A stretch of DNA of 64,000 bases from Escherichia phage A7_1 (OP795442); one strand, 5' to 3'. Shown: positions 23,923 to 47,938, counted from the first letter of the stretch. Notes: generated by a model from the letters alone, not told the origin. Translations and numbers: made by a program.

Positions 23923-25281
23923 TTATTGATCCTTGAAGATACTGGGGAACTTCTCGTGATAGAAGTTTACAACATCTTGGTCAACAATGATATCTTTTAC
24001 TCGTAAGCGTTTCAAAAGGCGAAGACCTTCTACACTCGTGGCACGGGAGAGCATAACATATGCTTGACCAGGTGTGAAAGTACCAAAGCCGAGATCGATG
24101 TTTACCTTACCTAAAGTTAAACCTTGTGCCTTGTGACCAGTGATCGCATAGCCCAACTTGAATGGGTATTGAATGTATTCACCAATAGATTTATCAACAA
24201 GAACAGTCTTTTCAACCATCTTCTTGATCATCTTTTTAGTCCCGTCCGGCATATCAACCTCTTCCTCTTCAAGCATCATCTTTTTCTCAGGTACTTGAGC
24301 AACGTTGTTCCATGTTGCAGGACCAATTGGGACCATCTTGCCATCGATATCTACAACAACAAAGGTTTTTGCGATACGACGCACAATACCGACTGTACCA
24401 TTGACATAATCAGGAACTTTCTTCTTCTGATCATTGTCGTTAACAACGATCATTACTTTAAGACCTTCTTTGAGAAAGAGCTTTTCGTTAACTGGACGTT
24501 CAACAAACTCACCAGTAATACGAGCATTAAATTCATGCTGTTCAGCATTAATCTTTGCGTATTCTTTGTTGTTGATCTCTTCTGCCAGCTTGTTCGTGGT
24601 AGTTAAAGTTACTGCTCCATCAAGTGGACGACCAAAGCAACGCTGATTAAAGAAGTTAACAGCATCGGGGATGTTCTTCCCGATACGGATATTATTAAGG
24701 TGTTCTGCAAACACAGGATCACTTTGACGATGCACTTTGGGAAGATAGGCATAGGTCAAATTCAAGGATTCCCAACTTTCACAACCAAAAGGAATTTCCT
24801 TGCCATGTAGCTCACGGAACAGGGGAACTTCTTCTTTCTTAAGAACAGGCTTGATCTGGAAACCATCGCCAAACATGATGATCTGGAGTCCACCAAAAGG
24901 CTTATCGGATTTACGATGATGGCGAAGTTTCATATCGATTTCCTTCAGTTTGTCACTTCGAGTCATACCGATCTCATCAAACACGATACCATCCAGTGCA
25001 TCAGATGCCATAAGCATAGCTGCCTTTTTAGATTTTGCCTTATAATCCTCGGAAGTTGTGACACCAAAGGTTAAACCAAACGCCTTGTGAGCCGTAACAC
25101 CACGGATGTTTAATGATGCTACACCTGTAGGACCAACAAACAGAAAACTATCGGCAAAGAAGTCACGCAATGCAGCGATCATCATACTTTTACCACTACC
25201 ACCAGGTCCGGTGATAAAAACGTTTTCACCATTCATGATTGCCTGCATCGCTGCTTCGTTACCGATCACTGTCTTAGTCAT
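23923..25281 (-). CDS. SF1B helicase, Dda/RecD/Pif1-like
   Basis: 452 aa; Walker A ITGPGGSGKS; C-terminal AITGHKAQGLT (RecD-like motif). Confidence 0.85.
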   Translation of the reverse strand: MTKTVIGNEAAMQAIMNGENVFITGPGGSGKSMMIAALRDFFADSFLFVGPTGVASLNIRGVTAHKAFGLTFGVTTSEDYKAKSKKAAMLMASDALDGIVFDEIGMTRSDKLKEIDMKLRHHRKSDKPFGGLQIIMFGDGFQIKPVLKKEEVPLFRELHGKEIPFGCESWESLNLTYAYLPKVHRQSDPVFAEHLNNIRIGKNIPDAVNFFNQRCFGRPLDGAVTLTTTNKLAEEINNKEYAKINAEQHEFNARITGEFVERPVNEKLFLKEGLKVMIVVNDNDQKKKVPDYVNGTVGIVRRIAKTFVVVDIDGKMVPIGPATWNNVAQVPEKKMMLEEEEVDMPDGTKKMIKKMVEKTVLVDKSIGEYIQYPFKLGYAITGHKAQGLTLGKVNIDLGFGTFTPGQAYVMLSRATSVEGLRLLKRLRVKDIIVDQDVVNFYHEKFPSIFKDQ

Positions 25282-30853: not shown

Positions 30854-31111
30854 TCAACTAAAAATTAAAGAAACAACGTGGTAAATTACTTGGGGAAAGA
30901 TAACTACGAAGTACAGATCAACAAATCCAGAGATAAAGTGATAAGCCTTCAGTTTTGTACGTTTACCTTTGTAAAAATCAGAGATGATTTTGAAATATTT
31001 ATAAAGATTCCTTAAAAGTGCAAAACCGATCAACCCCAATCCACTAAGAACCACAACAAAAAGTGAAAACTGGACGTCCGCACTAAAAACACCAACAATA
31101 AGATCTAACAT
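30854..31111 (-). CDS. small membrane protein
   Basis: 85 aa, three hydrophobic segments. Confidence 0.5.
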   Translation of the reverse strand: MLDLIVGVFSADVQFSLFVVVLSGLGLIGFALLRNLYKYFKIISDFYKGKRTKLKAYHFISGFVDLYFVVIFPQVIYHVVSLIFS

Positions 31112-31392
31112 TAAATTTCCTCCAAATCAGCTTCTACGACATAGATACCTGGTAAAACTCTATAAGCCCAGGTGTTAAAAGTACAAGAATACATAATTCC
31201 TTTTACCTTGTAAGTTTTATTTGCAAACTGGCTTACAGGGTCAGTGACTTTAACTACGGTGTCACTTGCAAACTTAGGCATACCGTGCTTTGAAATTGCT
31301 TCACGATCAACTTTGTAAACATCCCTCCCAAAGAACTTTTCTAGTGGACAAAGATTATTCTCAAAATCAGTACCCATAGTCAACATCTCCAT
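31111..31392 (-). CDS. hypothetical protein
   Basis: Track ORF, 93 aa. Confidence 0.45.
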   Translation of the reverse strand: MEMLTMGTDFENNLCPLEKFFGRDVYKVDREAISKHGMPKFASDTVVKVTDPVSQFANKTYKVKGIMYSCTFNTWAYRVLPGIYVVEADLEEI

Positions 31393-31980: not shown

Positions 31981-32440
31981 TATTTATTTGGATACCGAAA
32001 CGATTTTCGTTAGTGGAAAAGAAACCATTTTCCATGCGGCGAATCTCTTCTTTCATCACTTCCTGCATCGTTAATTTAAGGATTTCTTTGTTTAATTTTG
32101 GCTTAACTTCACGAAGCTTGTCAAGAAGTTTTTCCATTTCTTCTTTTACTTTTTCTTCCTCATTTTCTATCTCTAATTGGTCCATTGCATCTTTACAAAC
32201 ACAGCAATGACCTGTTACTCTTAAAATGTGATTTTGTATAGGTAGTGCTTTTCTACCGCAATACCCACAAAGAATAGAACCACCAGAGTTTCGAGCATCT
32301 ACTGTCAATGTAGGTTTAGCCCCTTCTGCTTGAGAATCCCAAGTCTTTTTACCCTGGTAATCATACATAAAGAATTCGTAGGATCTTTCATCAACGTGGT
32401 CTTCGAGCATATGTAAAGTTCGTGTATTGAAATGTTTCAT
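31952..32440 (-). CDS. hypothetical protein with zinc-ribbon-like Cys cluster
   Basis: 162 aa; CGYCG...CCVC; first gene of the leftward unit. Confidence 0.5.
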   Translation of the reverse strand: MKHFNTRTLHMLEDHVDERSYEFFMYDYQGKKTWDSQAEGAKPTLTVDARNSGGSILCGYCGRKALPIQNHILRVTGHCCVCKDAMDQLEIENEEEKVKEEMEKLLDKLREVKPKLNKEILKLTMQEVMKEEIRRMENGFFSTNENRFGIQINNGEDYVEED

Positions 32441-32560
32441 TTTTAACTCCTCGTCGTTTGTATGTGCTAACTATACGAGAACTTGAGGGGAAGATCAATA
32501 CTTGATTTGCATTTTATTTTCATTATACTGTGCACATCTAAAACGAGAAGGAGATAACAA
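32441..32560. promoter_or_regulatory. divergent promoter region
   Basis: Rightward TTGATT-17-TATACT plus AAGGAG SD before 32561; leftward TTGATC-17-TATAGT plus GAGGAG SD before 32440. Confidence 0.55.
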
Positions 32561-33124
32561 ATGAGTCAAGATAAAGAGTTAGCCATTGCGATATCCGTAG
32601 CTGCTTCTGCCCATGTTGACCAAGTAGATAAAGGGGGGAATATCTATATTCTTCATCCTTTGCAGGTGATGCAAACATTGCAGCAAAAGGGAAGGGGAGA
32701 TTTAATGGCAGCAGGAGTTTTGCATGATGTGATTGAAGATACTGAAATCACTATGGAACACCTCTTTAAAAAGGGGATTTCAGAAAGAACCTTAGTGATT
32801 GTCGATGCAGTGACAAAGAAACGTAAGCAATCTTCATCTGATTACCTAGAGGGGATTTTAGAGAGTGAGGGTGCTTGTCATGTTAAGCTTGCGGATCTTA
32901 AACACAACTTAGATATTCTGCGAACTTGTAGCACCACAGAAAAAGACTTGCAACGGGTCAGGAAGTATGTAACAATGCACTTGTTGATTACGGAGATGGT
33001 TGATTGGTATGAAAGTATCGGAAGGTATCTCGATTATTGTGATTCTTTTGCCTATTCTAGCTATCTCGACGAACGTAAAGAATTTGTTCAGAAACTTATT
33101 AAAAAATGGAAGGAGTTTAAATGA
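32561..33124 (+). CDS. HD-domain (p)ppGpp hydrolase, SpoT/Mesh1-like small alarmone hydrolase
   Basis: 187 aa; AHVDQVDKGGNIYILHPL, AAGVLHDVIEDTE, VIVDAVTK, KLADLKHNL match the RelA/SpoT hydrolase HD signature. Confidence 0.8.
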   Translation: MSQDKELAIAISVAASAHVDQVDKGGNIYILHPLQVMQTLQQKGRGDLMAAGVLHDVIEDTEITMEHLFKKGISERTLVIVDAVTKKRKQSSSDYLEGILESEGACHVKLADLKHNLDILRTCSTTEKDLQRVRKYVTMHLLITEMVDWYESIGRYLDYCDSFAYSSYLDERKEFVQKLIKKWKEFK

Positions 33125-33654
33125 AAAAGGTATTGAGTATTGAGCCGTTCACAACAACATACTTTGACGATTTGGAACGTCATGGTGATTATGGGGTACA
33201 AGACGCTGATGGTTGGAAAGAATTCCCTGAAGAAACAAAAGGTGACATTACAAAGCTCGGTTGTAAGATCAATGGATCTGAACCAAAAGGTGTTTACACC
33301 ATGTTTTCTTTCCTTGAAGCTATGAACCCAACGTACAAGGGAGATCGGCAATTTGGTTTTTCTTTTGCATCATTCCTTACTTGTAGCTGTGGTCATGGGG
33401 GTTGTGCAGGCTATCATGATAATGTGGTTATTCGACGTAAAAAGAATACCGTGATGGTCATGGGTAAAAAGGGAGATGGTTATGACGAAGGTGTTGTATT
33501 GACAGGTGAATCTGTTGTATACTTCGATAAAAAGCAGTGGGACGGTGTTCTAGAACACTACCTTAAACTCTTCAAAGAAAATCCTGATGGTGTTTTTGAA
33601 GATGCGGGTTTTATGTTTACTGGTCGTTGGGGGACTAAAAATTTTTCAAAATAA
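33121..33654 (+). CDS. hypothetical protein
   Basis: Track ORF, 177 aa; Cys/His cluster CSCGHGGCAGYH. Confidence 0.5.
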   Translation: MKKVLSIEPFTTTYFDDLERHGDYGVQDADGWKEFPEETKGDITKLGCKINGSEPKGVYTMFSFLEAMNPTYKGDRQFGFSFASFLTCSCGHGGCAGYHDNVVIRRKKNTVMVMGKKGDGYDEGVVLTGESVVYFDKKQWDGVLEHYLKLFKENPDGVFEDAGFMFTGRWGTKNFSK

Positions 33655-33724
33655 TTTAAAAACTTGTTGACTTAAGAAATAGAAAAGATATACTTATCAC
33701 ATCAAAAACAAGAGGAGATATAAA

Positions 33725-34954
33725 ATGCAAGCAACTTATCAACGTATGGACCAAACCATGTTCAAAAAACGTATCAGTGTTCGTGATATGGAATCACTGA
33801 TTCGCCTAGGAGCTTCCATCGGAAAGACCGTATTCTTTTTTGGTGGCGCTGGTCTTGGTAAGTCTGAAAAAGTAAAACAGATCGCTGATTCCATGTTCCC
33901 ACATCGTGTAGGTAATAACCTTTGTGATGTTCGTCTGTCGGATAAAGAGCCACAAGATATCGCAGGTATTCCGATTCCGATCTCTTATCCAGATCCGAAA
34001 ACTGGTAAAGAAGTCACTCGTACCGTATATGCAGTTCCAAACTTTTGGCCTACTGATCCTGATTGGGAAGGTATCGTGTTCTTGGATGAACTGCCAAATG
34101 CACCATTGGGCACTCAGCACTCTGCATATCAGGTTATTCTTGATCACGTTGCAGGTGAGCATAAGTTCCCGAAAGGTACTGTGTTTGTAGGTGCAGGTAA
34201 CCGTGATACTGATGGAGCAGGGACTACTTCTATGCCTGGCCCATTGGTTAACCGTATGATCATTGCAGAAGTTGATTATAATCTGGATGTGTGGATCGAA
34301 GACTATGCGATTCCGTTCCGTCTGCACCCGAACATTATTGGTTTCTTGAAGCAGTTTCCAGAGCATTTCTATACTGGTGACGTAGAAAACCGAAGTACTC
34401 CGGTTTATTCATCTCCTCGTCAATGGAAAACAGCATCTGACATTCTGTACAAGTATGATGCGGGTGAGATTAATGAATTTATCGCAGAGGTTGCTCTTGC
34501 AGGTACAGTTGGTGAAGGCCTGGAAGTACAGATCCTTGCTTATCATTTACGTGCTAAAGAACTTCCTCCGATTGAAGATATCTTTAGTGGTGCAGTTGAA
34601 GAACATAAACTTGATCGCAGTAAGAACGACCTTGTTTACGTCCTGGCACAAACTGGCCTTCGTCGCATGGAAGATGAGGTTATGGATAATGACATGACGG
34701 ATGATAAGTTCCTTGAACGTGCAGGTAACTTCCTTACGTTCATGTACAATAACTATTATGCAAACAACAAGGATACGATGATTGCTTTGATCTTGGGCGT
34801 GTTCCGTGGTCCAAACGATAAGCCATCTATCTTGACTGTTAACCCGAAACGTCAGAAAATGATTCCGCTTATGCGTAAGAGTTGCCCGACTGTTTCTGCC
34901 GCAGTTATGGAATACATGACTCGATATGGTCAACTGATTAAAGAATTCGAATAA
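33725..34954 (+). CDS. MoxR-like AAA+ ATPase
   Basis: 409 aa; Walker A GGAGLGKS, Walker B VFLDELPNA, sensor region VGAGNRD. Confidence 0.8.
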   Translation: MQATYQRMDQTMFKKRISVRDMESLIRLGASIGKTVFFFGGAGLGKSEKVKQIADSMFPHRVGNNLCDVRLSDKEPQDIAGIPIPISYPDPKTGKEVTRTVYAVPNFWPTDPDWEGIVFLDELPNAPLGTQHSAYQVILDHVAGEHKFPKGTVFVGAGNRDTDGAGTTSMPGPLVNRMIIAEVDYNLDVWIEDYAIPFRLHPNIIGFLKQFPEHFYTGDVENRSTPVYSSPRQWKTASDILYKYDAGEINEFIAEVALAGTVGEGLEVQILAYHLRAKELPPIEDIFSGAVEEHKLDRSKNDLVYVLAQTGLRRMEDEVMDNDMTDDKFLERAGNFLTFMYNNYYANNKDTMIALILGVFRGPNDKPSILTVNPKRQKMIPLMRKSCPTVSAAVMEYMTRYGQLIKEFE

Positions 34955-34959
34955 TCTCT

Positions 34960-35020
34960 TGACAACGAAAAACAGTTAACTTAATATAAGGGCATCTCGA
35001 AAGAGGTGTCCTTTTTTAAT
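34960..35020 (+). promoter_or_regulatory. promoter plus leader hairpin for the HNH endonuclease gene
   Basis: TTGACA-17-TAATAT followed by a catctc/gaggtg hairpin and T-run; approximate. Confidence 0.4.
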
Positions 35021-35029
35021 TTGGAGAAA

Positions 35030-35524
35030 ATGATGGATTTCATAAAAGAAGGATTTTCTTTCGACCCCCTTGCAAAGTTTCTACTAAGGAGAAATGGAAG
35101 AGAAGTAGGGAATGTAGTAAAGAATCATAAAGGTTATGATAAAGACTATGTACGTGTAACATGGTCAAGGGAAAGGAAAAGAAAATCTGCGTATGCTCAC
35201 AGGATCATTTGGGAATTGCATTATGGCAAGATACCTGATGGTTATTGTATAGACCACATAAATGGAGATGGTTTGGATAACAGGATTGAAAACTTAAGAT
35301 TGGCAACTAAGAGTCAGAATGGTCAAAACAGGAAAAACAACAAGAATAAAAAGGATGGTCTTCCTAAAGGTGTAGTTATGAATCATGGAAAATACACAGG
35401 AAGGGTCTATGTAAATGGAAAAAGGTTACAGAAAATTAGTTCCGACCTTGACGAAATAGTCAATTGGTTGGAGAATAAACGTAAAGAAAATCACGGTGTG
35501 TTCATGAACAATGGAGAACAATAA
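35030..35524 (+). CDS. HNH homing endonuclease, free-standing
   Basis: Track ORF 35006..35524 begins at GTG inside a hairpin; ATG at about 35030 behind GGAG; core HRIIWELHYGKIPDGYCIDHINGDGLDNRIENLRLATKSQN. Confidence 0.8.
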   Translation: MMDFIKEGFSFDPLAKFLLRRNGREVGNVVKNHKGYDKDYVRVTWSRERKRKSAYAHRIIWELHYGKIPDGYCIDHINGDGLDNRIENLRLATKSQNGQNRKNNKNKKDGLPKGVVMNHGKYTGRVYVNGKRLQKISSDLDEIVNWLENKRKENHGVFMNNGEQ

Positions 35525-37062
35525 TGTCAAAAATTAGTCAAGAAGAAAAAGATATGATCGAAATGCAAGTCTTCGAAGCTGAACGTATTATTGAAGCTGC
35601 AAGTCTTCAACTTATGCGCTTCAAAGCGTTCTACGGGGTTATGCTTTCGTCTATGCCTGTTAAAAAGGCGACGGAGTGGTGTAGTACAATGGCGACTGAT
35701 GGACGTAACCTGTATTACCATCCAGAGTTCGTTGCAGGTATGACAGAAGAACGTAAAAAATTGGTACTTGAGCGACTTTCCAAATCTGAGAAAGATCCTA
35801 AAAAGCTGAAAGAGGGTATTGAGTTTATCAATGTCTTCTATCGTCGAAAGACTGCTCGTGAGCTTGCTCTTATTCTTGAGCACGAATGCGATCATGTGAT
35901 CTCTGATCACGCTTCTCGTGGTAAAGGGTTTAATCATGAGCTTTACAATATTGCAGCGGATCATCGTATCAATACAACGGCTGTGCTTATTCACCAGAAA
36001 GGGGATGAGCTAGGTAAAGCCTGGTTCCCTGCCGGAGAGAGAACGGTATTTGATAAAAATGCTGAATTTGGATTTATGGCCTGGTCTTACTGTGATTTCC
36101 GATTCAAAGATATGTATACTGAGCAGATCTATGAAATCCTGAATAAAGAGCAAGATGATAAAGAAAAATCCAAAGGGAAAGGTTCTGGTTCTGGAAGTGG
36201 AGAGGGTGATGGTGAAGAAGGTGGTCAAGGTCGTAAAGGTGTTGATCAACACATGGATCAGAATGGTGATCCAGAAGATTCAGAAGGTGATGATATCGAA
36301 GATGCACTGGGAATCGACCGTAAAGCGAAGCCTAAGCAAACAGCAGAGGAACGCCAGTATAACGATGGGGTTATGCGTCGAGCCATTGAGAATGCCGTAC
36401 AGGCAGCAGGAAGCGGTGCACCGGAAGATGCTCGTCGTTTTGTAGAAGCGGCGGGTAAACCAAAGATTAATTATCTTCGTTTGTTGCGTAAAACTATTGA
36501 ACGTCTGTTCAAAGATGATGTATCATATCGTCGTTTGTCACGCCGTAGTCACTCGTTAACTCGGACTCTTCGTGGCTCGGGTTACTTATCTGGACGACAG
36601 ACGATTGGTTTACCCTCAAAGAATAAACAGAAGACTATTCGTGCAGGTGTCTTCTTCGACGTATCTGGATCATTTAACGATGATCTGTTAAGACCAACAA
36701 TGCGTGAGATTCGTGGATTGTGTAATCTTTACGATGAGTTTGAAGTTACAATGGCTTGCTGGTCAACAAAGGTTGGTAACATTGAAACGTATACGAAGAA
36801 GAATGTGAATGAGATTGCTAACTACAAGATCAAGACCACATTTGGTACGGATGTTTCTTGTGTGTTCGAGGCATTAGATGAAATGAAAGACCCTATGGAT
36901 CAGATCATCATCTACACTGACGGTTACTTTGCTGATGTATCCCAAAAGAAAGATTGGGCCAAAAAGTATGGTAAGAATGTTCTTTGGATTATCCTGGGTC
37001 GTGGGTCTTCGTTCACCCCGCCTTTTGGCAAGGCAATTGATTTTGACAAGTATCTTAAATAA
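35524..37062 (+). CDS. VWA-domain protein with N-terminal HExxH metallopeptidase-like domain (MoxR partner)
   Basis: 512 aa; HECDH zincin-like motif; C-terminal VFFDVSGSF MIDAS motif; Gly/Asp/Glu-rich linker. Confidence 0.8.
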   Translation: MSKISQEEKDMIEMQVFEAERIIEAASLQLMRFKAFYGVMLSSMPVKKATEWCSTMATDGRNLYYHPEFVAGMTEERKKLVLERLSKSEKDPKKLKEGIEFINVFYRRKTARELALILEHECDHVISDHASRGKGFNHELYNIAADHRINTTAVLIHQKGDELGKAWFPAGERTVFDKNAEFGFMAWSYCDFRFKDMYTEQIYEILNKEQDDKEKSKGKGSGSGSGEGDGEEGGQGRKGVDQHMDQNGDPEDSEGDDIEDALGIDRKAKPKQTAEERQYNDGVMRRAIENAVQAAGSGAPEDARRFVEAAGKPKINYLRLLRKTIERLFKDDVSYRRLSRRSHSLTRTLRGSGYLSGRQTIGLPSKNKQKTIRAGVFFDVSGSFNDDLLRPTMREIRGLCNLYDEFEVTMACWSTKVGNIETYTKKNVNEIANYKIKTTFGTDVSCVFEALDEMKDPMDQIIIYTDGYFADVSQKKDWAKKYGKNVLWIILGRGSSFTPPFGKAIDFDKYLK

Positions 37063-37071
37063 GGAGGATCT

Positions 37072-37443
37072 TTGAGCGAGTATACTTACAAGTTGTCAGT
37101 CGGTAGGCGTGGAGTGGTTATGACTATCAACATGATTAATGAAAGTGCGGAGGCTGTGAAATGGTGGGCCTCCACCTTTAACGGGAAAGGTTTTACTTTA
37201 TCTCGTCATAAGGTTGGATCAGGAAAGCCAATAGATCTTGTCAAGGAGGACACTTTCTTGTATCCTGATCGTATTGCTGATGAAGATATTGATTTCCTAT
37301 CTGCTACGGTTGGTAGTTTGTTGGATGAGGAGCCAGACATTGTAAGGTTACTCTCTTTACTTACAGCAATGTGGTCAGCAGGTCATGATGAGGAAAGTAT
37401 GCATACGATGGTAAGGAATACGTTGAGACGTTGGTCTAAGTAA
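37072..37443 (+). CDS. hypothetical protein
   Basis: Track ORF, 123 aa, TTG start 3-5 nt after AAGGAGGA. Confidence 0.45.
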   Translation: MSEYTYKLSVGRRGVVMTINMINESAEAVKWWASTFNGKGFTLSRHKVGSGKPIDLVKEDTFLYPDRIADEDIDFLSATVGSLLDEEPDIVRLLSLLTAMWSAGHDEESMHTMVRNTLRRWSK

Positions 37444-37489
37444 CAACATTTCCTTTATGCCCATTTAGGCATACAATACTATATTAGAT

Positions 37490-37535
37490 GATAAACCCCT
37501 CAACCTGCTCGGTTGCTTCGACGGGGTTTATATAT
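37490..37535 (+). terminator. terminator-like hairpins
   Basis: aaacccc...ggggttt stem then an AT-rich palindrome aaaaaattaa/ttaatttttt; approximate. Confidence 0.45.
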
Positions 37536-37652
37536 CTATTAAAAAATTAACCACACTCACATTCGTTCGGTACTTAATTTTTTAAGTCACCACAAAATTG
37601 TGTTGACACCACAATGAAACAGATGTAGAGTTAACAAGAGAAGGAAAGTCAA

Positions 37653-37751
37653 TTGGATAAGTTTTACATATACTGTCTAACATTGGGATTGATCTTCATG
37701 ATTGTTGGATCAGTGGGTAAAGTTTTACTCAATAGTTTTGGAATTTATTAA
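37653..37751 (+). CDS. tiny hydrophobic peptide (about 32 aa, not in track)
   Basis: TTG start after AGAAGGAAAG SD; (M)DKFYIYCLTLGLIFMIVGSVGKVLLNSFGIY; approximate. Confidence 0.3.
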   Translation: MDKFYIYCLTLGLIFMIVGSVGKVLLNSFGIY

Positions 37752-37763
37752 GAGGAGATCGTA

Positions 37764-38006
37764 ATGAGAGTACGTCAACATCGTGGTACATTGATCGAAA
37801 GTTTGAAAACTGTTAAACAGATTGAAGGTACAAAACAAGCTCTTGTGGATCATATCAACAAAGAGTTAGGTAAACCGTTTAACTTCTCTGTTGATTCGAT
37901 CAGTATTGTGGAAAAAGGAGTTGATGAGCGTATCAACTGGAACAACCATCTGATCCTGATTGATGGATTTGGTGTATTTGGTTATTGTGATCAACATCCT
38001 GTTTAA
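37764..38006 (+). CDS. hypothetical protein
   Basis: Track ORF, 80 aa, GAGGAG SD. Confidence 0.5.
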   Translation: MRVRQHRGTLIESLKTVKQIEGTKQALVDHINKELGKPFNFSVDSISIVEKGVDERINWNNHLILIDGFGVFGYCDQHPV

Positions 38007-39235: not shown

Positions 39236-39272
39236 GACTTCAGTTATCGAAACAAAGAGGGGGAAACACATA

Positions 39273-39488
39273 ATGACTAAGATTGTAACTTACGTGTTCG
39301 AAGGTGATTCTGTACCCAGTGAATTTTTTGAAGATGTTTACAGCAATGATCGTGGAGTGGAACCTTTAAAGGTTTTACTTGTTGATGTTACCAACTACGG
39401 TGATGATATCGAAGTCACAGTGCAAGGAACAACCCGAGAAGTCATTGATGAACGTATGAAGTATTGGACACTGTTGCTGAAAAAATAA
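39273..39488 (+). CDS. hypothetical protein
   Basis: Track ORF, 71 aa. Confidence 0.5.
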   Translation: MTKIVTYVFEGDSVPSEFFEDVYSNDRGVEPLKVLLVDVTNYGDDIEVTVQGTTREVIDERMKYWTLLLKK

Positions 39489-39520
39489 AAAAGTTATTTT
39501 AAATTACATAGGAGAAAGAA

Positions 39521-40162
39521 ATGGCTATCTATGCAAAACTGAAAGAAAGTAAGAAAAGTTATTTTATTTCAATGGACCCATCTAACCGACGTATGATTGA
39601 AAATCATGGTGATCGATTCATTGTTCGACCTTCTGAGAATAACGATTCTTACTTACGTCCGGTGGGTCCACGTATTGAGGGTCAGTTCTTAACATCCCGA
39701 GATATCGAAGAGTATTTTACATTCTTCCCTGAATGGTCAGCAGAGTCAGCAGAATACATCGTTAACTTGGCGATCCCGCAGGGTCAGGTGTCTATTGATG
39801 ATCAGTATCTGTTGGGTGATTTAACTGGGGACTATAGAATTAAAACAAGCCACCCGAATATGTGGCGACTCTATAACAACTCTACTAACCCTGATGATTA
39901 TGTCCTAATCAAGCAGAGTAATTTGGAGAAATACTTCACCTTAGAGGAAGATTGCTTAAAGAGAGCATTGAATAAGTTTGACAATTACACCTCTTCTTCT
40001 TCTTCTTCTTCTTCTTCTGTTGAAAAGGAACAGGAACTCGCAGATGATGATGTTTTTGAATTGAAGATTAAACGCACAGTAAGGGTTAAGGATGCAGAAA
40101 TCACAGAGGACAATCTGGATCAGTTCATTGCACAGCTTACTAAACTGGTTAAAGGAGAATAA
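39521..40162 (+). CDS. hypothetical protein with poly-Ser tract
   Basis: 213 aa; internal run of 9 Ser encoded by a (TCT)n repeat. Confidence 0.55.
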   Translation: MAIYAKLKESKKSYFISMDPSNRRMIENHGDRFIVRPSENNDSYLRPVGPRIEGQFLTSRDIEEYFTFFPEWSAESAEYIVNLAIPQGQVSIDDQYLLGDLTGDYRIKTSHPNMWRLYNNSTNPDDYVLIKQSNLEKYFTLEEDCLKRALNKFDNYTSSSSSSSSSVEKEQELADDDVFELKIKRTVRVKDAEITEDNLDQFIAQLTKLVKGE

Positions 40163-40812: not shown

Positions 40813-41631
40813 ATGGCCTATCGTAAATTTGACCCACTAATCATTTATGAAGTTGTCCCAATGAGTGTCTCCAATCCTCATGGTTTGCAATCACCTACCC
40901 CACTTGACCATAAGACAATGATCAGGAATGCAGAGTACACCTTAAGAGATCTTGAGAACGAAGAGATTGAAAGTGCTGTGCATGGATTGAAAGACCTGAT
41001 CCGTGAACTTGATACGGATGATTCTGTTCAAGAATATATTGAAAAGTCAGAGGCGCTAATCACGAAGTTTCATGAGTACCGCACTAAGGTATCGCGTATT
41101 CTTGATGAAGCTTTTGATCCTTCATCAAAAGACCCGATAAATGATGACAAGGCAATAGCCTTACTCAGCCAAATAGCTGACGCTACTGACAGCATGGACC
41201 CTGGTTTTGTAAGGGCTGATCATACCTGTGTAGATCAGTTTCCTTTAGCCTATCTTAAATCCAAAAAAGCATTCGGTAGTCTGGCTTTTGTCTGGGAGTA
41301 TGAGAAAGATTCCCTTACTCGTTACATCAATCGGGTAGGTAAGAAAGATACTTCAGTTACGTTAAATATCTTTTGTGATGGTTCCTTGATGGTCCATAAC
41401 AACTGGACAAAAGAGAGCATCCTCTTTGGTAAAGAAAGAGATCAGAAATTTAAACTGGTAAACTATATCCGTTTCGCAACAGAGGATAGTAAAATGGGTA
41501 AGTCATTTAAAGAGGAGGACTTTAAAACTTTCTTTGAGGATTGGCTTTCCCCAACAGAAGAAGAGATCCAACTCTTCAAGGCTGTAAATGGGGATGTTTC
41601 GTTCGACCTCTACACACTTTTTAATGAGTGA
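40813..41631 (+). CDS. hypothetical protein
   Basis: Track ORF, 272 aa; last gene of the rightward unit. Confidence 0.55.
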   Translation: MAYRKFDPLIIYEVVPMSVSNPHGLQSPTPLDHKTMIRNAEYTLRDLENEEIESAVHGLKDLIRELDTDDSVQEYIEKSEALITKFHEYRTKVSRILDEAFDPSSKDPINDDKAIALLSQIADATDSMDPGFVRADHTCVDQFPLAYLKSKKAFGSLAFVWEYEKDSLTRYINRVGKKDTSVTLNIFCDGSLMVHNNWTKESILFGKERDQKFKLVNYIRFATEDSKMGKSFKEEDFKTFFEDWLSPTEEEIQLFKAVNGDVSFDLYTLFNE

Positions 41632-41651
41632 TATTTGTTCGCTGAAACAAA

Positions 41652-41748
41652 TTCAGATTTCAGATCCAAAATCTATTTGAGATATTTCCCTGTGATATTT
41701 GTTTCATGGGGAATTTTCAGATTTCAATTTGAAATTCTATTTGAGATA
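41652..41748. repeat. two about 33-bp imperfect direct repeats
   Basis: ttcagatttca(g/a)at...aaat(c/t)ctatttgagata occurs twice about 63 bp apart; approximate. Confidence 0.6.
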
Positions 41749-41926
41749 AATTTAAGACTCCTGCCACCGTGCCCCATCCATACTGTGTCATTCCTGCATA
41801 CCTGCACCACTAGATCAACTTAGTTGATGCCCCTCTTACAGACTCACCCTCCAGATTCAATACGTTACTGCTCCACTATACATACGATACAAAGCAAACA
41901 TACGACACTCATGACCAGAATAATTT

Positions 41927-42094
41927 GAGAACTTGAGAGGTTTTTCATTTTTGAGATCGTAACCTGAAAACTGTGCACGAGAACTTGAGAGGTTTTTCGA
42001 TACAGGGATTAGGAACTTGAGAGCTTTTTCATTTTTGAGTTTGCATTTGAACTTGAGAACTTGAGCTACAGGCCAGATACTTGAGAGGTTTTTC
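41927..42094. repeat. iteron array, five copies of about 17-bp gaacttgagaggtttttc
   Basis: Direct repeats at about 41930, 41980, 42013, 42049 and 42077; interspersed catttttgag and gaaaaatttttc palindromes; no ORF. Confidence 0.7.
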
Positions 42095-42451
42095 AAATTT
42101 CAGTTTCATTTCAAAATTGAAAAATTTTTCATAAGCATAAAAGTATAGAGGTTGTCAAGGTCTTTGATAAGAAATTTTTCAGGGGGTGAGAATTATTCTC
42201 ATTTGCAAAATAGCGGGCAGGGGTGGTGATTGCCTCGTGAAACCGTCCTCATCACCGTGAATATATAATAGCACCGTTTTTGATTCGAAAGCAACAACAT
42301 TTTAAAAATATTTTTCGGTAAATTTTAGGCGAGCTACCAGCGATTATAGCTATCGATGCCCTTCGGCTATCATCACCCAAGTTTAACGCCGTTGGTAGGC
42401 GATTGTTTTCCTATGTAGGCATTATGGCCCCTGGCGGGGCCGTTGTCAACA

Positions 42452-42730
42452 TTATTTTTTATCTTCTTGCCAGGTAAGAACGCCTAACCAAAAATACACG
42501 TCGCCCTTAGCGTTCGGCGGTATCTTGCTTTCTTTCCCGCCAGCACACGCCCAAAGGTAACCATCGGTAAACGTATCAAGGTAGTCCATATCTTCCACCT
42601 TTCGATCCGCCAGGTTAAGGATAGTATTAACGTCTAAGCCTGTTGCGCTTGCTACCTGGTAGACCGTGCCACCTTGCCAGCCTAACGAGTGCATAAGATG
42701 CAAAGTAGTAGTAGTGGTGATGGTAGTCAT
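42452..42730 (-). CDS. hypothetical protein, leftward orphan gene
   Basis: Track ORF, 92 aa; own TTGCCA-17-TATAGT promoter on minus strand; locally higher GC. Confidence 0.45.
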   Translation of the reverse strand: MTTITTTTTLHLMHSLGWQGGTVYQVASATGLDVNTILNLADRKVEDMDYLDTFTDGYLWACAGGKESKIPPNAKGDVYFWLGVLTWQEDKK

Positions 42731-42778
42731 AGTATCGCCCTTTCTTCTGTTGTGCGCCCTGGTTGGCGCGGTAAAAAG

Positions 42779-42870
42779 ACTATAAATGATCTTCCTTTAT
42801 ATGGCAAGGAAAAAGAAAATTAAAAAAGATTGAAAATAATGTTGACGTGGTGAATCTGGTAGCGTAGTAT
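42779..42870. promoter_or_regulatory. divergent promoter pair
   Basis: Rightward TTGACG-17-TAGTAT; leftward TTGCCA-17-TATAGT. Confidence 0.55.
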
Positions 42871-42927
42871 TCATCTCATCGAACGGCGACATGCCAACAA
42901 GTAAACAAATAAAAGGGCAACAACAAA

Positions 42928-43113
42928 ATGAATAAAAGAATTACAAACGTAAATCCTGGCGAACGTTTCCAACATGAGGGGCATTTGCACACTGTAGTAA
43001 GCAACAAAGAGCATACTGTAAGAGTAAATAGAAATATCTTGCAACTTCGCGATCGTTTTGGTATCGTACAGACTTACACTTTCGAAGCAAATAAAACAGT
43101 TAAAACTTTCTGA
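42928..43113 (+). CDS. hypothetical small protein
   Basis: Track ORF, 61 aa. Confidence 0.5.
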   Translation: MNKRITNVNPGERFQHEGHLHTVVSNKEHTVRVNRNILQLRDRFGIVQTYTFEANKTVKTF

Positions 43114-43124
43114 GGATTTTTAAA

Positions 43125-43460
43125 ATGGCACTAGTCACTAAGTATTTCATTGAAGGCCAGCAAGCGGCGCAACAAGGTTACAGCCGTGTTACTCGTTACA
43201 AGAAAGAAGAAAACAAGATTGAATTTTTCAAGGGTTACGATAGTGTAAACCGTGATGCAATGGTCCTACGCTTCGAATCCGATCCAGTGGGCAAGCCTGT
43301 TACCTCTTACCAGGCATCACCGCAGATTGTTTATGTTGGTACTGTTAAAGAATGTAACGACAAGTTAATCACTTTGAAGCAGGCCGATCGTGCGGGTTAC
43401 TTTGTTGTTTACACTGCTGACGGTAAGCCTTACCAGTACGAAAGCAAATATTTTAAATAA
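43125..43460 (+). CDS. hypothetical protein
   Basis: Track ORF, 111 aa. Confidence 0.55.
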   Translation: MALVTKYFIEGQQAAQQGYSRVTRYKKEENKIEFFKGYDSVNRDAMVLRFESDPVGKPVTSYQASPQIVYVGTVKECNDKLITLKQADRAGYFVVYTADGKPYQYESKYFK

Positions 43461-43466
43461 AAAGTA

Positions 43467-43523
43467 TTGACAGAAAGAAAGAAGTAAATTAAATTATACC
43501 ACGTAACGCCGCAATCGTGCGGC
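43467..43523 (+). promoter_or_regulatory. sigma70-like promoter plus 5' GC hairpin cassette
   Basis: TTGACA-17-TAAATT then hairpin gccgca-atcg-tgcggc. Confidence 0.55.
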
Positions 43524-43550
43524 AATAAAAACTGATAGGAATTGAACAAA

Positions 43551-43763
43551 ATGGCTAAAATCATCATTAAAAAATCCCGTGTATCTTCTGTTGCTCGCGT
43601 CGAAATGGTAAACACTATGCCAGGTTACCGGACTCGCGAGGAAGCCCGAAGCGTTGCAAAACAGATTAAAGCCCGTGGCTTAACTGTAAGTGCACCGACC
43701 AAAACACAAGAAGGATGGAAGGTATCTATTAAATCCGGTACACTGTCAATCAATAAACACTAA
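43551..43763 (+). CDS. hypothetical basic small protein
   Basis: Track ORF 43542 has a TTG start; ATG at 43551 (MAKIIIKKSR) is likelier. Confidence 0.5.
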   Translation: MAKIIIKKSRVSSVARVEMVNTMPGYRTREEARSVAKQIKARGLTVSAPTKTQEGWKVSIKSGTLSINKH

Positions 43764-43825
43764 TAGCCAAAACATTAACGGGGCAACTTTGCCCTCATTA
43801 AATAACATTATCCAGGAGTATTAAC

Positions 43826-43984
43826 ATGACTAGCCAAAACACTAACATTGAAAAAATCAACATTACTAAAGAGCGTAAAGCATGGAATGAAACATTAAAT
43901 CTCAAAGGTAAGAAGCTGAATAAAACTAAACGCGATCGCAGTACAAAGCGGGCCTTTTGTGAATTTACAGCGGATCAAGAGTGA
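43826..43984 (+). CDS. small basic protein (about 52 aa, not in track)
   Basis: MTSQNTNIEKINITKERKAWNETLNLKGKK... behind CCAGGAGT SD; approximate. Confidence 0.35.
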   Translation: MTSQNTNIEKINITKERKAWNETLNLKGKKLNKTKRDRSTKRAFCEFTADQE

Positions 43985-44175
43985 TGATTAAAGTTATTGC
44001 ACTTACTGCTTTATTGTGTATACCATTTTTGGCGCACGGTACTAAGTTTTACGGTGCTAACTTGATAGATTGTAAAGCTCATATGCTGGACCATGAAACA
44101 GGCAACAAATTTCTTAAGCCTTTCCAGATCAATCCAGCGGCATTTAGTGACCGGTGTTTTGTATCAGGAAGGTAA
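43984..44175 (+). CDS. small protein with signal-peptide-like N-terminus
   Basis: Track ORF 43981..44175; MIKVIALTALLCIPFLAHG. Confidence 0.45.
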   Translation: MIKVIALTALLCIPFLAHGTKFYGANLIDCKAHMLDHETGNKFLKPFQINPAAFSDRCFVSGR

Positions 44176-44287
44176 AGCCAGTACGCTGATAATGCATTAC
44201 GATCCGACAACAAAGAAAGGTAGTCTATCAATCCAGGTTGGAGAGGTGGAAGAGTTTTCCGGTGAAATAGTCTGTAATTAATATCTT

Positions 44288-44319
44288 GAGGCCCGTCATT
44301 GTACGGGCCTTTTTCTTTT
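44288..44319 (+). terminator. rho-independent terminator
   Basis: aggcccgtcattgtacgggcct followed by T-run. Confidence 0.8.
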
Positions 44320-44343
44320 ATGAAAATAATTTTGAAAATGTTG

Positions 44344-44411
44344 TTGACAGTAAAATCGATTCTGTTAAGATGTATCACATCAGGACGGGGAACGAAGTAA
44401 ACACTCCCCGT
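44344..44411 (+). promoter_or_regulatory. promoter plus hairpin cassette with no downstream ORF
   Basis: TTGACA-16/17-TAAGAT then acgggga...tccccgt hairpin; next start codon is after a second cassette. Confidence 0.5.
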
Positions 44412-44470
44412 TAAGTAGTCCAGGAGTAAGACATACGAAAAACTCCCCTGATAAAAAGATTTAAAAGTGG

Positions 44471-44527
44471 TTGACACAAAATTAAAAACTGTTAAGATGT
44501 ATCACATACGGCGGCAATAGTGCCGCC
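44471..44527 (+). promoter_or_regulatory. promoter plus 5' GC hairpin cassette
   Basis: TTGACA-16-TAAGAT then ggcggca-atag-tgccgcc. Confidence 0.6.
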
Positions 44528-44547
44528 TCCAACAAAGAGAAATTATC

Positions 44548-44799
44548 ATGGCTAACAAAACTAAAACCACTAAAACTTATAACGGTCACAAAAACAAAAA
44601 TCATTGGAACGTTTCTCTATGGCTTAACAATGATTCATCACTTTACCAGCTGGCGAAAGAATTTATTAACGCTAACACTAATCGTAATGATGCGGCGCGG
44701 GATATGATGATTTTTCTGGAACAAACTGGACAATATAAAACTCCAGACGGTTTCAAGTACAGCACTACGGCGATCCGTGCTGCAATGGTTGGAATGTAA
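44548..44799 (+). CDS. hypothetical protein (paralogue of 46366..46605)
   Basis: 83 aa; shares HWNVSLW and C-terminal TPDGFKYSTTAIRAAMVGM. Confidence 0.55.
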   Translation: MANKTKTTKTYNGHKNKNHWNVSLWLNNDSSLYQLAKEFINANTNRNDAARDMMIFLEQTGQYKTPDGFKYSTTAIRAAMVGM

Positions 44800-44817
44800 T
44801 ATTCAATACTGTAACAA

Positions 44818-44836
44818 TGGCGGGATTAGTTCCCGC
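44818..44836 (+). promoter_or_regulatory. 5' leader GC hairpin
   Basis: ggcggga-ttagt-tcccgcc. Confidence 0.5.
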
Positions 44837-44855
44837 CTTTGCGGAGAAATATCTA

Positions 44856-45143
44856 ATGAGCAAAGTAATTGACTGTAAAGTGTTAACCAAATCATTGTCA
44901 ATCAGTGAGTGCACCAATGGTTATTGGCTTTATGATGAAACACGCGGCATGAATCTAGCTATGGAAGCTAAAACGGCTGAGGCGGCGTATGTGCAAGCCC
45001 TGGAATACTACCAGAGACGTTTAAAGGAAGTAGAAAACAATTATCAGAATCTCAAAGAGAAAGTAGATCATTTCGTTGGTCAATTCGTTGACGATGACGA
45101 GGAAGACGGGCACTACTGCAACCGCTGCGGATCTTACAGTTAA
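44856..45143 (+). CDS. hypothetical protein
   Basis: Track ORF 44817 begins inside the hairpin; ATG at about 44856 behind GGAG is likelier (MSKVIDCKVL). Confidence 0.5.
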   Translation: MSKVIDCKVLTKSLSISECTNGYWLYDETRGMNLAMEAKTAEAAYVQALEYYQRRLKEVENNYQNLKEKVDHFVGQFVDDDEEDGHYCNRCGSYS

Positions 45144-45147
45144 GTAC

Positions 45148-45207
45148 TTGCAATTAGTTTTAAGTACTGTATAATGTTTTACATCGAGAGCGGGAATAGT
45201 TCCCGCC
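45148..45207 (+). promoter_or_regulatory. promoter plus 5' GC hairpin cassette
   Basis: TTGCAA-16-TATAAT then gcgggaa-tag-ttcccgc. Confidence 0.6.
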
Positions 45208-45229
45208 TCACATCAAAGAGATTAAAATT

Positions 45230-45457
45230 ATGGCTATCCTTATTGTTCGTGTATCCGGTACAGTTGGTAACTCCCAGGTTGTAGCAGTTGTAACAAGCAA
45301 AAAGATTAATGAATCTTCTAAAATCTTGAACGAATGGGCCGTTGCTAACTTTGGTCAATGGTCGAGCGTCGAGTATCTCGAATCTTACCAGGTGCCAACT
45401 ATTAGCCTAACCGATCTCAATGTTGATCGCCTGTTATGCCTGGATGAATTGATTTAA
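45230..45457 (+). CDS. hypothetical protein
   Basis: Track ORF, 75 aa. Confidence 0.5.
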   Translation: MAILIVRVSGTVGNSQVVAVVTSKKINESSKILNEWAVANFGQWSSVEYLESYQVPTISLTDLNVDRLLCLDELI

Positions 45458-45464
45458 AAAGTAG

Positions 45465-45524
45465 TTGCAAAGTAAAACGAATAAAGTATAATACATTACA
45501 TCAGGGGGAGAAATGATTCTCCCC
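45465..45524 (+). promoter_or_regulatory. promoter plus 5' GC hairpin cassette
   Basis: TTGCAA-16-TATAAT then gggggaga-aatga-ttctcccc. Confidence 0.6.
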
Positions 45525-45541
45525 ACTAAAAGGAAACTAAA

Positions 45542-45685
45542 ATGAAAACTTGTCAGTGTGGTAAAAAGTCTATTGCTGGTCTGCGTCGCGGTGTTGCTTT
45601 ATGCCAGTATCATTACAATAGTCAAGTATGGGGTAAAACGTGGGCTGACCAGGTTGAAGCAGCAAAGAAAGCAAAAAGTAATTGA
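45542..45685 (+). CDS. small Cys-rich protein (about 47 aa, not in track)
   Basis: MKTCQCGKKSIAGLRRGVALCQYHYNSQVW... behind AAGGA SD; the antisense track ORF 45570..45887 is rejected; approximate. Confidence 0.4.
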   Translation: MKTCQCGKKSIAGLRRGVALCQYHYNSQVWGKTWADQVEAAKKAKSN

Positions 45686-45738
45686 CAGCAAGAAGAAAAA
45701 GAGTAAACTGTATTACGTAGGGCGGCAATAGCGCCGCC
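45682..45738 (+). promoter_or_regulatory. promoter plus 5' GC hairpin cassette
   Basis: TTGACA then ggcggc-aatagc-gccgcc. Confidence 0.55.
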
Positions 45739-45762
45739 ACATCAAAGATAGAGAGAATCAAA

Positions 45763-45981
45763 ATGGCCAATATCCGCACTGTACTGAAAAATGCAAAACA
45801 AGTTTTATTTTCTGACGATGAATATTTTAATCGCAATATCAAAGGCGTTCGGAACATTGAGGATGTAAAGGAATTATTTGGAATCAAAGGTAACGTATAT
45901 CGTAAAGGATTGCACGGTAATAATTTTGAATATAAGTTGGCTGATAGTGATTATAATTTTACACTGACCACCATTAGTTGA
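45763..45981 (+). CDS. hypothetical protein
   Basis: Track ORF, 72 aa. Confidence 0.5.
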   Translation: MANIRTVLKNAKQVLFSDDEYFNRNIKGVRNIEDVKELFGIKGNVYRKGLHGNNFEYKLADSDYNFTLTTIS

Positions 45982-46000
45982 AAGTTTTAACCTAGCGCTA

Positions 46001-46029
46001 TTGACTTAAGCCGATAGTGCTGGCATAAT
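46001..46029 (+). promoter_or_regulatory. sigma70-like promoter (copy 1 of a duplicated promoter)
   Basis: TTGACT-17-CATAAT; about 40-bp leader nearly identical to the promoter at 46294. Confidence 0.6.
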
Positions 46030-46061
46030 AACTTTTATCAAGAACATCAAAGGAAAGTAAA

Positions 46062-46274
46062 ATGGCTATCATTACTAAAATCAAAGTAAACAAAACACTG
46101 GTTAAGCTGGAAGAAGTGAAAGCAGGTTATAAAGTATCTTGGTGTGGCATGTATCGGATGTTCACAGATATAGACGATGCAATCAATTACTACACTAACA
46201 CGATTAAAAACTTTGTTCGTGCTGATGTGATTATTGCAGTGGAAGCACATAAAGCATCGAAAGAAAGTAAGTAA
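46062..46274 (+). CDS. hypothetical protein
   Basis: Track ORF, 70 aa. Confidence 0.5.
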   Translation: MAIITKIKVNKTLVKLEEVKAGYKVSWCGMYRMFTDIDDAINYYTNTIKNFVRADVIIAVEAHKASKESK

Positions 46275-46293
46275 AATTATTACCACAGTACTA

Positions 46294-46322
46294 TTGACAA
46301 CTACTGATAGTACTGACATAAT
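46294..46322 (+). promoter_or_regulatory. sigma70-like promoter (copy 2 of a duplicated promoter)
   Basis: TTGACA-17-CATAAT followed by the same ataacttttatcaag leader. Confidence 0.6.
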
Positions 46323-46365
46323 AACTTTTATCAAGTAGTACAAATCAAAAAGAGAGAATATCATC

Positions 46366-46605: not shown

Positions 46606-46624
46606 AAAGAAAAAGTAAAAGTAG

Positions 46625-46682
46625 TTGACACAAAGAAACAAAACAAGTAAATTAATCACATCAGGCGGGGAATGGCCCCGCT
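46625..46682 (+). promoter_or_regulatory. promoter plus 5' GC hairpin cassette
   Basis: TTGACA-17-TAAATT then gcgggg-aatgg-ccccgc; nearly identical to the cassette at 48749. Confidence 0.65.
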
Positions 46683-46703
46683 AAAAGAGAAGAGAGAAAT
46701 CAA

Positions 46704-47935: not shown

Positions 47936-47938
47936 CAT

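Follow-up and report, generated by a model that had tools for sequence, protein, structure and literature searches.

In the 64,000-nucleotide stretch of Escherichia phage A7_1 studied here (OP795442; hereafter the window), the gene of a MoxR-type AAA+ ATPase is followed by that of a protein which joins a zincin-like peptidase domain to a VWA domain (hereafter the VWA-peptidase), and a small HNH endonuclease gene lies between the two. We consider it likely that two separate things meet at this locus, namely a MoxR/VWA-zincin module and a selfish homing gene of the HNH_3 family, lodged in the spacer between the partner genes. Direct support for this comes from the identities of the domains, their conserved catalytic residues, the linkage of the two partners, the boundaries of the insertion, its recurrence in other phages and a tract of divergence beside it. 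The three open reading frames (ORFs) and the motifs quoted in an earlier annotation of this DNA (the original prediction) are all present at the positions it reported, and the features of the locus are collected in Table 1.

Position of the HNH gene in the spacer

Over bases 33000-38000, the window was found to match Escherichia phage A5-4 (Vequintavirinae, 145 kb) along the full length with 99.2% identity. The coliphages LTH01, A73, UPEC06 and W70 match the same bases at 94-97% of nucleotides, but these matches cover 90% of the query and are broken into two pieces. By these sequence matches, the window is that of a Vequintavirinae coliphage. The HNH gene is present in A5-4, where its ORF is intact and identical to that of the window, and it is exactly absent from the four other phages: 490 nucleotides are missing, with clean boundaries that are identical in all of them. 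These four phages share an identical 80-nucleotide spacer, in which the stop codon of the ATPase gene is followed by a sigma70-like promoter match (TTGACA-17-TAATAT), a hairpin with its T run, a GGAG, the sequence ATGAA, and then the ATG of the VWA-peptidase gene.

The HNH gene is a stand-alone, intergenic ORF placed exactly between the partners. Its product matches the Pfam HNH_3 family with E=3.6e-23 (81 bits against a cut-off of 24.8; all Pfam cut-offs given here are gathering scores). The longest ORF opens at a GTG (35006); the ATG at 35030 agrees with the annotation of A5-4 and with the N-terminus of the orthologue in Pectobacterium phage CB7. This ATG is a resident one, and it stands behind the resident ribosome-binding site (RBS). 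At the other end of the gene, a new GGAG is found (35513-35516), and the TAA stop codon (35522-35524) overlaps the downstream ATG in the sequence TAATG.

The original prediction had given the HNH gene a promoter of its own. This part does not survive the comparison: the promoter match, the hairpin and the GGAG RBS are 100% identical in the four HNH-less phages, where they serve the VWA-peptidase gene, and are therefore resident signals of the spacer. As read from this layout, the inserted gene draws on the resident signals for its own expression and provides the displaced VWA-peptidase gene with new signals for translation. In terms of events, the HNH gene would have entered precisely behind the resident RBS and ahead of the VWA-peptidase start codon and would use the resident promoter and RBS, while expression of the VWA-peptidase would be restored by the new RBS and the TAATG stop/start overlap.

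The resident hairpin is predicted to fold with -16.5 kcal/mol (z = -5.8). It is kept in the HNH-less phages, and its position is also conserved in the Certrevirus phages CR8, P7_Pc and CB7. The succession of a promoter-like element and, directly after it, the hairpin likewise keeps its position in Certrevirus phages. With such an arrangement, transcripts from the spacer promoter would start inside the hairpin and escape it, and read-through from the ATPase gene would be terminated.

Recurrence of HNH genes and divergence of the adjoining gene

The closest other HNH proteins, with 67-68.5% identity, are those of the Pectobacterium phages CB7, phiTE and PcCB7V, which belong to the genus Certrevirus. 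In CB7 (68.5% of amino acids) and phiTE, the two loci that were read, the HNH orthologue lies at the same position, directly before the start codon of the DUF2201 gene, that is, the gene of the VWA-peptidase family. The locus of Certrevirus phage CR8 has no HNH gene. In P7_Pc, a different HNH_3 gene was found, which is 39% identical over the nuclease core only and which lies at the stop codon of the ATPase gene, upstream of the hairpin. Since the proteins of the flanking genes in P7_Pc are 99.6-100% identical to those of the HNH-less CR8, the gain of this gene must have been very recent, and it represents a second, independent insertion into the same spacer. The spacer between the partner genes thus tolerates insertions.

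On one side, the insertion adjoins a tract of high divergence, made of the first 120 nucleotides of the VWA-peptidase gene. Here 26-27 mismatches (22%) separate the window from each of the four HNH-less relatives. For comparison, LTH01 differs from the window at 20 of 1230 positions in the ATPase gene, at 49 of 1419 in the rest of the VWA-peptidase gene and at 0 of 79 in the upstream spacer (Fisher p=3e-15; background ~2.6%), and the HNH-less phages show 0-9 differences among themselves in the same 120 positions. The differing codons of the tract are ten synonymous and eight nonsynonymous ones. We regard it as a candidate co-conversion or target-immunity tract. The HNH protein would probably cut HNH-less alleles within these first ~120 nucleotides of the VWA-peptidase gene, where the HNH-containing allele is heavily recoded.

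A different history would be that the HNH gene is not an active homing element, but an old resident with several losses behind it, or a nuclease domesticated for a function in the phage. Two observations weigh in favour of this alternative. The identity of the HNH proteins between the two genera (68.5% between the window and CB7) falls between the values of the flanking genes (74.5% and 63.8%), so that old vertical inheritance with repeated clean loss keeps a certain probability. The ORF has also stayed intact, and A5-4 and the window have it in identical form. It further counts against the proposed homing that only one nucleotide position (GAG to GAA, before AASLQLMR) separates all HNH-containing from all HNH-less alleles across the two genera; as a source of diagnostic target-site nucleotides, this one position in the EAASLQLMR block was rejected as too weak. 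What makes a resident gene quite improbable, in our view, is the combination of the exact absences, with the same functional 80-nucleotide spacer in 4 of 4 HNH-less relatives, the sharp limits of a diverged tract that exists on one side of the insertion only, the very recent gain of an unrelated HNH_3 gene in the spacer of P7_Pc, and the composition of the cassette, whose GC content (35.7%) is 7 points under that of the flanking genes (42-43%). We conclude that the HNH gene bears the usual signature of a typical intronless, free-standing homing element, a mobile insertion with a presumed nuclease activity. The homing into a conserved locus that had been proposed originally, exactly between the partners, is in keeping with the presence and absence of the gene among relatives, with the use of the same site in Certrevirus and with the divergence of the flank.

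Free-standing homing endonucleases of T-even phages, such as those of the seg and mob genes, are known for 'intronless homing': their genes are located in spacers, are patchily present, have a divergent, co-converted flank and make use of resident signals. The HNH gene of the window is similar in being a small nuclease gene between conserved genes, patchy in close relatives, with a divergent and probably co-converted flank in the neighbouring gene and with resident expression signals. It differs in that it encodes a predicted HNH_3 nuclease, only distantly related to the T4 mob HNH genes, and not a GIY-YIG one. A further difference from the T-even situation is the existence of two different HNH_3 lineages at two points of one spacer of 70-80 nucleotides.

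Table 1. Features of the ATPase/HNH/VWA-peptidase locus, in window coordinates
Feature	Position	Strand	Basis or remark
MoxR-type AAA+ ATPase, 409 aa (phrog_1297)	33725-34954	+	ORF, motifs, profile, AlphaFold2 (AF2) model
Walker A GGAGLGKS, residues 40-47	33842-33865	+	ATPase
Walker B VFLDELPNA, residues 118-126	34076-34102	+	ATPase
Sigma70-like promoter match TTGACA-17-TAATAT	34959-34987	+	Resident spacer
Intrinsic-terminator-like hairpin, 11 bp stem, GAAA loop, then T6 run	34988-35019	+	Directly 3' of the -10 element
Resident RBS GGAG and ATGA	35023-35033	+	Final stretch shared with HNH-less genomes
Free-standing HNH_3 gene, 164 aa	35030-35524	+	Pfam, A5-4 annotation
Inserted cassette, 490 nt	35034-35523	+	Single A there in four close relatives
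DUF2201 protein (VWA-peptidase), 512 aa	35524-37062	+	Pfam, conserved residues
High-divergence tract, first 120 nt of the VWA-peptidase gene	35524-35643	+	Adjoins the insertion
HECDH in N-terminal zincin-like domain, residues 120-124	35881-35895	+	Plus invariant H129
Disordered acidic/Gly-rich linker, residues 220-249	~36181-36270	+	VWA-peptidase protein
MIDAS (metal ion-dependent adhesion site) DVSGS in C-terminal VWA domain, residues 379-383	36658-36672	+	Plus T442, D466

Assignment of the ATPase to the MoxR class

The ATPase of the window matches phrog_1297 ('ATPase') with 2.8e-100. A profile built from 25 homologues retrieved the AAA domains of midasin first (3e-15), with Clp/Hsp100 and RFC proteins next. 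Residues G40, G43, G45, K46, S47, D121, E122, N159, R177 and R232 are invariant among these homologues and are those expected of an active AAA+ protein. From residue ~200 on, the protein carries an all-helical extension. The AF2 model (pLDDT 87.6) was compared with the PDB by Foldseek, and the top matches were NorQ (E=1e-7, target TM-score ~0.6), CbbQ2 (6l1q, a MoxR AAA+ ATPase) and CHU_0153 (2r44). The candidate beta-hairpin inserts of the MoxR type, in helix 2 and before sensor 1, lie in the model at residues 82-103 and ~142-148 and occupy the expected places in the strand order, as read from the secondary structure and not from a superposition. Moreover, the profile aligned (hhalign E=1.2e-49) with an ATPase whose gene immediately precedes a DUF2201 gene in a bacterium. 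This bacterial ATPase does pass the Pfam cut-offs, for AAA (37.3 against 21.2 bits), AAA_3 (32.2 against 27) and AAA_5 (25.7 against 22), and within the phage family itself, weak matches to bpMoxR are found in 10 of the 25 members, beside weak ones to AAA_5 and Mg_chelatase.

Two results speak against a MoxR assignment. The window ATPase matched 0 Pfam families even at E<=1 and had no NCBIfam match, and the RFC clamp-loader subunits reached Foldseek E-values near that of NorQ, although with much lower TM-scores. A search of PDB sequences with the single ATPase sequence yielded 0 matches as well. As the window ATPase passes no Pfam model, its assignment rests on the profile and fold evidence. 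On that evidence we accept it as a predicted MoxR-class AAA+ ATPase which itself falls below the curated family threshold.

The partner is a predicted peptidase with a VWA domain

In the 512-residue protein, two Pfam domains are recognised above their cut-offs, DUF2201_N ('putative metallopeptidase'; 6.5e-25, 88.7 bits against 23.2) and DUF2201 ('VWA-like'; 7.9e-8, 32.9 bits against 26.4), which together define the family (PF13203 zincin and PF09967 VWA-like). Both were present in 66 of 66 homologues. An alignment of 33 homologues, down to 22% identity, showed invariance of the zincin-site residues H120, E121, H124, H129 and R132, and of the MIDAS residues D379, S381, G382, S383, T442 and D466. 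The family profile also matched an integrin I-domain (2e-4) and, around the HExxH, an M48 peptidase (8e-4), the minigluzincin MJ1213 and BepA. By its sequence, the protein is a predicted peptidase, with an HExxH site completed by a third ligand, and with a VWA fold that has a complete MIDAS. The weak side of this reading is the zincin domain, for which no strong solved-structure match was obtained: the best sequence match had E=8e-4, and the VWA domain dominated the structure searches. With the single sequence, only Gly/Ser linkers of engineered constructs were retrieved from PDB sequences, and neither this protein nor the HNH protein had a match in NCBIfam. Overall, the AAA+/MoxR assignment of the original prediction and its zincin and VWA/MIDAS assignments are borne out, the first by the midasin profile, the NorQ, CbbQ2 and CHU_0153 folds and the alignment to a protein positive for AAA_3 and AAA_5, the second by the Pfam scores and the invariant residues.

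Names in the databases are misleading for both families. In PHROGs, phrog_1314, to which the VWA-peptidase family corresponds, is labelled 'HNH endonuclease', as are several GenBank/RefSeq records (among them RefSeq CR8 gp117, FFH2 and PBECO4). There is no HNH domain in this family, so the label is a propagated mis-annotation. The ATPase homologue of Salmonella phage SSBI34 is misnamed 'ribosomal protein uS19'.

Linkage and spread of the pair

Linkage was measured in two samples. The viral one drew on IMG/VR, where 61 loci of diverse origin had sufficient sequence; their ATPases show ~30-35% identity to that of the window. A DUF2201 gene was found downstream on the same strand in 59 of the 61, and within 150 nucleotides in 44 of those. 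The other was composed of 64 loci from genomes or metagenome-assembled genomes, collected with a DUF2201 query; an ATPase homologue was scored upstream on the same strand in at least 61 of them, and 2 of the other 3 were cases of overlapping ORFs. This very strong conservation of adjacency means that the ATPase and the VWA-peptidase are partners, as had been proposed; their products would interact physically.

The 'classical pair' of the original prediction is right as to a very frequent adjacency and goes too far if contiguity is taken as universal. In Vequintavirus (rV5-like) phages, the partner genes run in opposite directions with 3.7 kb between them, and ~15 of 80 IMG/VR loci have 0.3-3.5 kb of unrelated genes between the partners. 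Both situations count against a strict unit, and they mean that tight coupling is not required. The pair has been broken up in the genus Vequintavirus; in phage WalterGehring of this genus (locus L095, 1255-7551), it flanks a divergent control region. The cargo between partners in uncultured viral contigs (L016 1284-3968; L017, L052, L056, L073, L087) was read by eye, without profile searches. It included an SmpB-like ORF, a 335-residue repeat protein apparently ending in a PD-(D/E)xK-like motif, an ORF with a GDS(W/L)-type N-terminal motif, a Cys-rich ORF (CxxxCxxC-like) and a repeated family of ~100 residues.

Both families are very widespread. A tblastn search with the ATPase returned relatives in 814 phage records, and the DUF2201 family counts 24,569 cluster representatives at E<=1e-10 in a 50%-clustered library. 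Among cellular genomes, an array composed of an SNF2-like helicase gene (~1170 residues, WH_1 and DUF8437), a MoxR ATPase gene and a DUF2201 gene was seen in gut Firmicutes, in 16 of 80 genome loci (L004, L091, L118-L131, L175), including the chromosome of Allobaculum mucilyticum. Mrr-like and WYL-domain genes neighbour the array in one locus, and AddAB-like genes in another.

A third conserved partner was considered, namely the 123-residue downstream gene (phrog_12385), and rejected: it is kept only within the A5-4 and Certrevirus groups, at ~34% identity, and is unrelated to the gene that follows the ATPase gene in rV5-like phages.

The pair in N4-like and jumbo phages

The original prediction implied more novelty than the pair can claim. 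The core set of N4-like phages, only 14 genes in all, includes gp24 and gp25 of phage N4 (gp25 with a 'vWFA domain'), and both belong to the middle transcripts (PMC4193335). They represent the same two families as the window pair, in the same order and strand. The ATPase of the N4-like phage Bas96 was found by tblastn, and its downstream gene aligned with the DUF2201 profile (hhalign E=5.9e-45); a homologue in Klebsiella phage K64-1 is annotated 'gp25-like'. The N4-like proteins differ from those of the window by their sequence (~24-28% identity), their shorter length (~350 and 390 residues) and the lack of the long acidic linker, and Bas96, unlike the window, has no HNH gene between the partners.

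In jumbo phages of group 2.2, a pair made of a MoxR AAA+ protein and a vWA protein with an N-terminal metallopeptidase domain has been described (Iyer et al. 2021, PMC7824862). It has the same architecture and belongs to the same family, and the same combination of chaperone-cochaperone action and proteolysis was predicted for it as for the window pair. Both window proteins matched the jumbo phages GAP32, G17, vB_Ec-M-J, K64-1 and PBECO4; with a genome of 145 kb, the window phage is itself not a jumbo phage. The pair is thus the counterpart, in Vequintavirinae, of N4 gp24/gp25 and of the MoxR-vWA-peptidase pair of jumbo phages, and it is not new. The HNH gene was not new either, as A5-4_50 is already an 'HNH homing endonuclease' in GenBank. 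What is added here is the exact geometry of the insertion, the finding that HNH genes of two lineages made repeated use of one spacer in two genera, and a tract of divergence on one side only. A literature search yielded no experimental study of the phage pair, and combining MoxR with N4-like or rV5 returned nothing.

Among better-known systems, NorQ-NorD and CbbQ-CbbO contain the best structural matches of the window ATPase, and there also an adjacent gene encodes a partner with a C-terminal VWA/MIDAS domain. The partner in the window has a zincin peptidase domain in place of the N-terminal regions of NorD and CbbO, and the window ATPase differs from NorQ and CbbQ by its extra helical ~200 C-terminal residues and by a sequence identity of ~15%. 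Unlike these systems, the window pair has no metalloenzyme client encoded nearby.

Possible roles of the pair

A mechanism can be proposed on the model of NorQ-NorD, CbbQ-CbbO and midasin. The VWA domain would dock on the ATPase hexamer, and the MIDAS would hold one particular client protein by an acidic residue. The client would then be remodelled at the expense of ATP, and the tethered zincin domain could cleave it. The pair would in that case constitute a two-component, substrate-specific, ATP-dependent protease or maturation machine. In this scheme, as in that of homing, we infer the physical interaction, the proteolysis and the client on the one hand, and the activity and target of the endonuclease on the other.

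The gene context of the pair bears on its role. The locus lies just to the right of a divergent control region (~32440-32560). To its left, on the minus strand, are the replication genes, namely those of a DNA polymerase (11283-13937), a Dda-like helicase (23923-25281) and a primase/helicase. Rightward on the plus strand follow the genes of an HD-domain hydrolase and a phrog_8242 protein, the ATPase, HNH and VWA-peptidase genes, and many small ORFs. The pair therefore sits in a non-structural early/middle region, beside replication genes.

Iyer et al. (PMC7824862) explicitly proposed virion assembly for the jumbo-phage pair, which would be an assembly chaperone with a maturation protease, putting together tail or head parts and processing structural proteins. 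Such a role has been shown for the MoxR-VWA proteins of the archaeal virus ATV. The ATV tail system is among the MoxR-vWA couples that have been studied (Kaur et al. 2020, PMC7159879), and genes for virion proteins lie near the gp24/gp25 homologues of roseophage RPP1 (PMC4193335). The context of the window pair disfavours this role, as the pair belongs to an early/middle cluster of small genes outside the structural module. The middle transcription of N4 gp24/gp25 (PMC4193335) does not fit with it either. In Bas96, the pair is placed between the RNAPII genes and a dCTP deaminase gene. In cells, the neighbours of the homologues are not virion genes: they are a gene for an SNF2-like helicase and, each in a single locus, an AddAB-like nuclease/helicase pair or an Mrr-like nuclease domain. 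The gp24 and gp25 proteins are not known from proteomes of the N4 virion. Altogether, we think a role in virion assembly unlikely for the window pair.

The same early/middle location, by the HD-domain hydrolase and replication genes, could fit a device for host takeover or counter-defence, in which the VWA/MIDAS recognises a host protein (for instance a defence factor or one bound to DNA), the ATPase extracts it and the zincin destroys it early in infection. Middle expression in N4 and the very wide spread over unrelated phage groups would be in line with such a function, and the gut Firmicutes pair has neighbours that suggest contexts of DNA conflict, namely the gene of the SNF2-like helicase and some found in one locus each, of Mrr-like, WYL-domain or AddAB-like type. 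On the other hand, no PADLOC model matches either phage protein, nor is there a match to a known anti-defence family, and genes that are core in N4-like phages would more readily have an essential, housekeeping function than an accessory one in counter-defence. We hold this possibility to be doubtful, about on a par with virion assembly. PADLOC models did not match the bacterial DUF2201 protein either, and the SNF2 array is absent from PADLOC; that the module is a known defence or anti-defence system was therefore rejected.

A third possibility is that the pair inserts a metal or a cofactor without proteolysis, as NorQ/NorD, CoxD/CoxE and CobS/CobT do, with an HExxH that handles metal or is regulatory. 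NorQ and CbbQ are indeed the nearest solved relatives of the ATPase, and the bacterial MoxR-VWA pairs characterised so far mostly mature metalloenzymes (listed in PMC7159879). Yet the full HExxH...H is invariant in the family, the zincin domain matches the active families M48, BepA and minigluzincin around the motif, and no client metalloenzyme gene is conserved beside the phage pairs. Pure cofactor insertion is the least likely of the roles, because the catalytic Glu is invariant, and we regard it as very unlikely. Our ranking is as follows: remodelling or proteolysis of a phage or host client in the early/middle phase, which the context favours, comes first, then virion assembly, and then pure cofactor insertion.

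A broader and rather speculative proposal, to which we give a low probability, is that phages and mobile elements would generally use the module as a protease driven by ATP and guided by an adaptor, acting early in infection on a DNA-associated or host-defence client and not in virion assembly. If this were true, the triad of SNF2-like helicase, MoxR and DUF2201 proteins in gut Firmicutes would represent that activity in cells or mobile elements.

Other features of the window

Elsewhere in the window, the primase/helicase gene seems to be split (19793-22588, minus strand). The ORFs 21644-22588 and 19793-20902 match consecutive parts of phrog_239 (profile positions 101-366 and 368-657, respectively), and ORF 21027-21524, between the two halves, has weak matches to HNH_3 (2e-4) and to a helix-turn-helix. 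This looks like a second insertion of homing-endonuclease type in the window. Neither tRNA genes nor Rfam families, intron families included, were detected in the window.

On the plus strand, ~19 kb (41631-60486) are devoid of any ORF >=150 aa, and presumably correspond to a long run of small early genes. A 71-residue ORF (39273-39488) is absent from phage LTH01 (region 39240-39510). ORF 39521-40162 encodes a poly-Ser run, and its inner patch (39700-40100) is merely 73-80% identical even to A5-4. Further mosaic patches with respect to A5-4 were seen at 31100-31300, 32200-32300 and 35900-36100.

Significance

Among phage modules whose function is predicted only, the pair is one of the most widespread. 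It is core in N4-like phages and occurs also in Vequintavirinae, in jumbo phages and in many contigs of uncultured viruses from marine and fresh waters. Finding its client would annotate tens of thousands of genes, and to this the window locus adds little. The locus does expose the 'HNH endonuclease' label that has been propagated through the VWA-peptidase family. It also offers a clean natural system for the study of intronless homing, in which the HNH-containing phage A5-4 and the HNH-less phages A73 and W70 share source and host.

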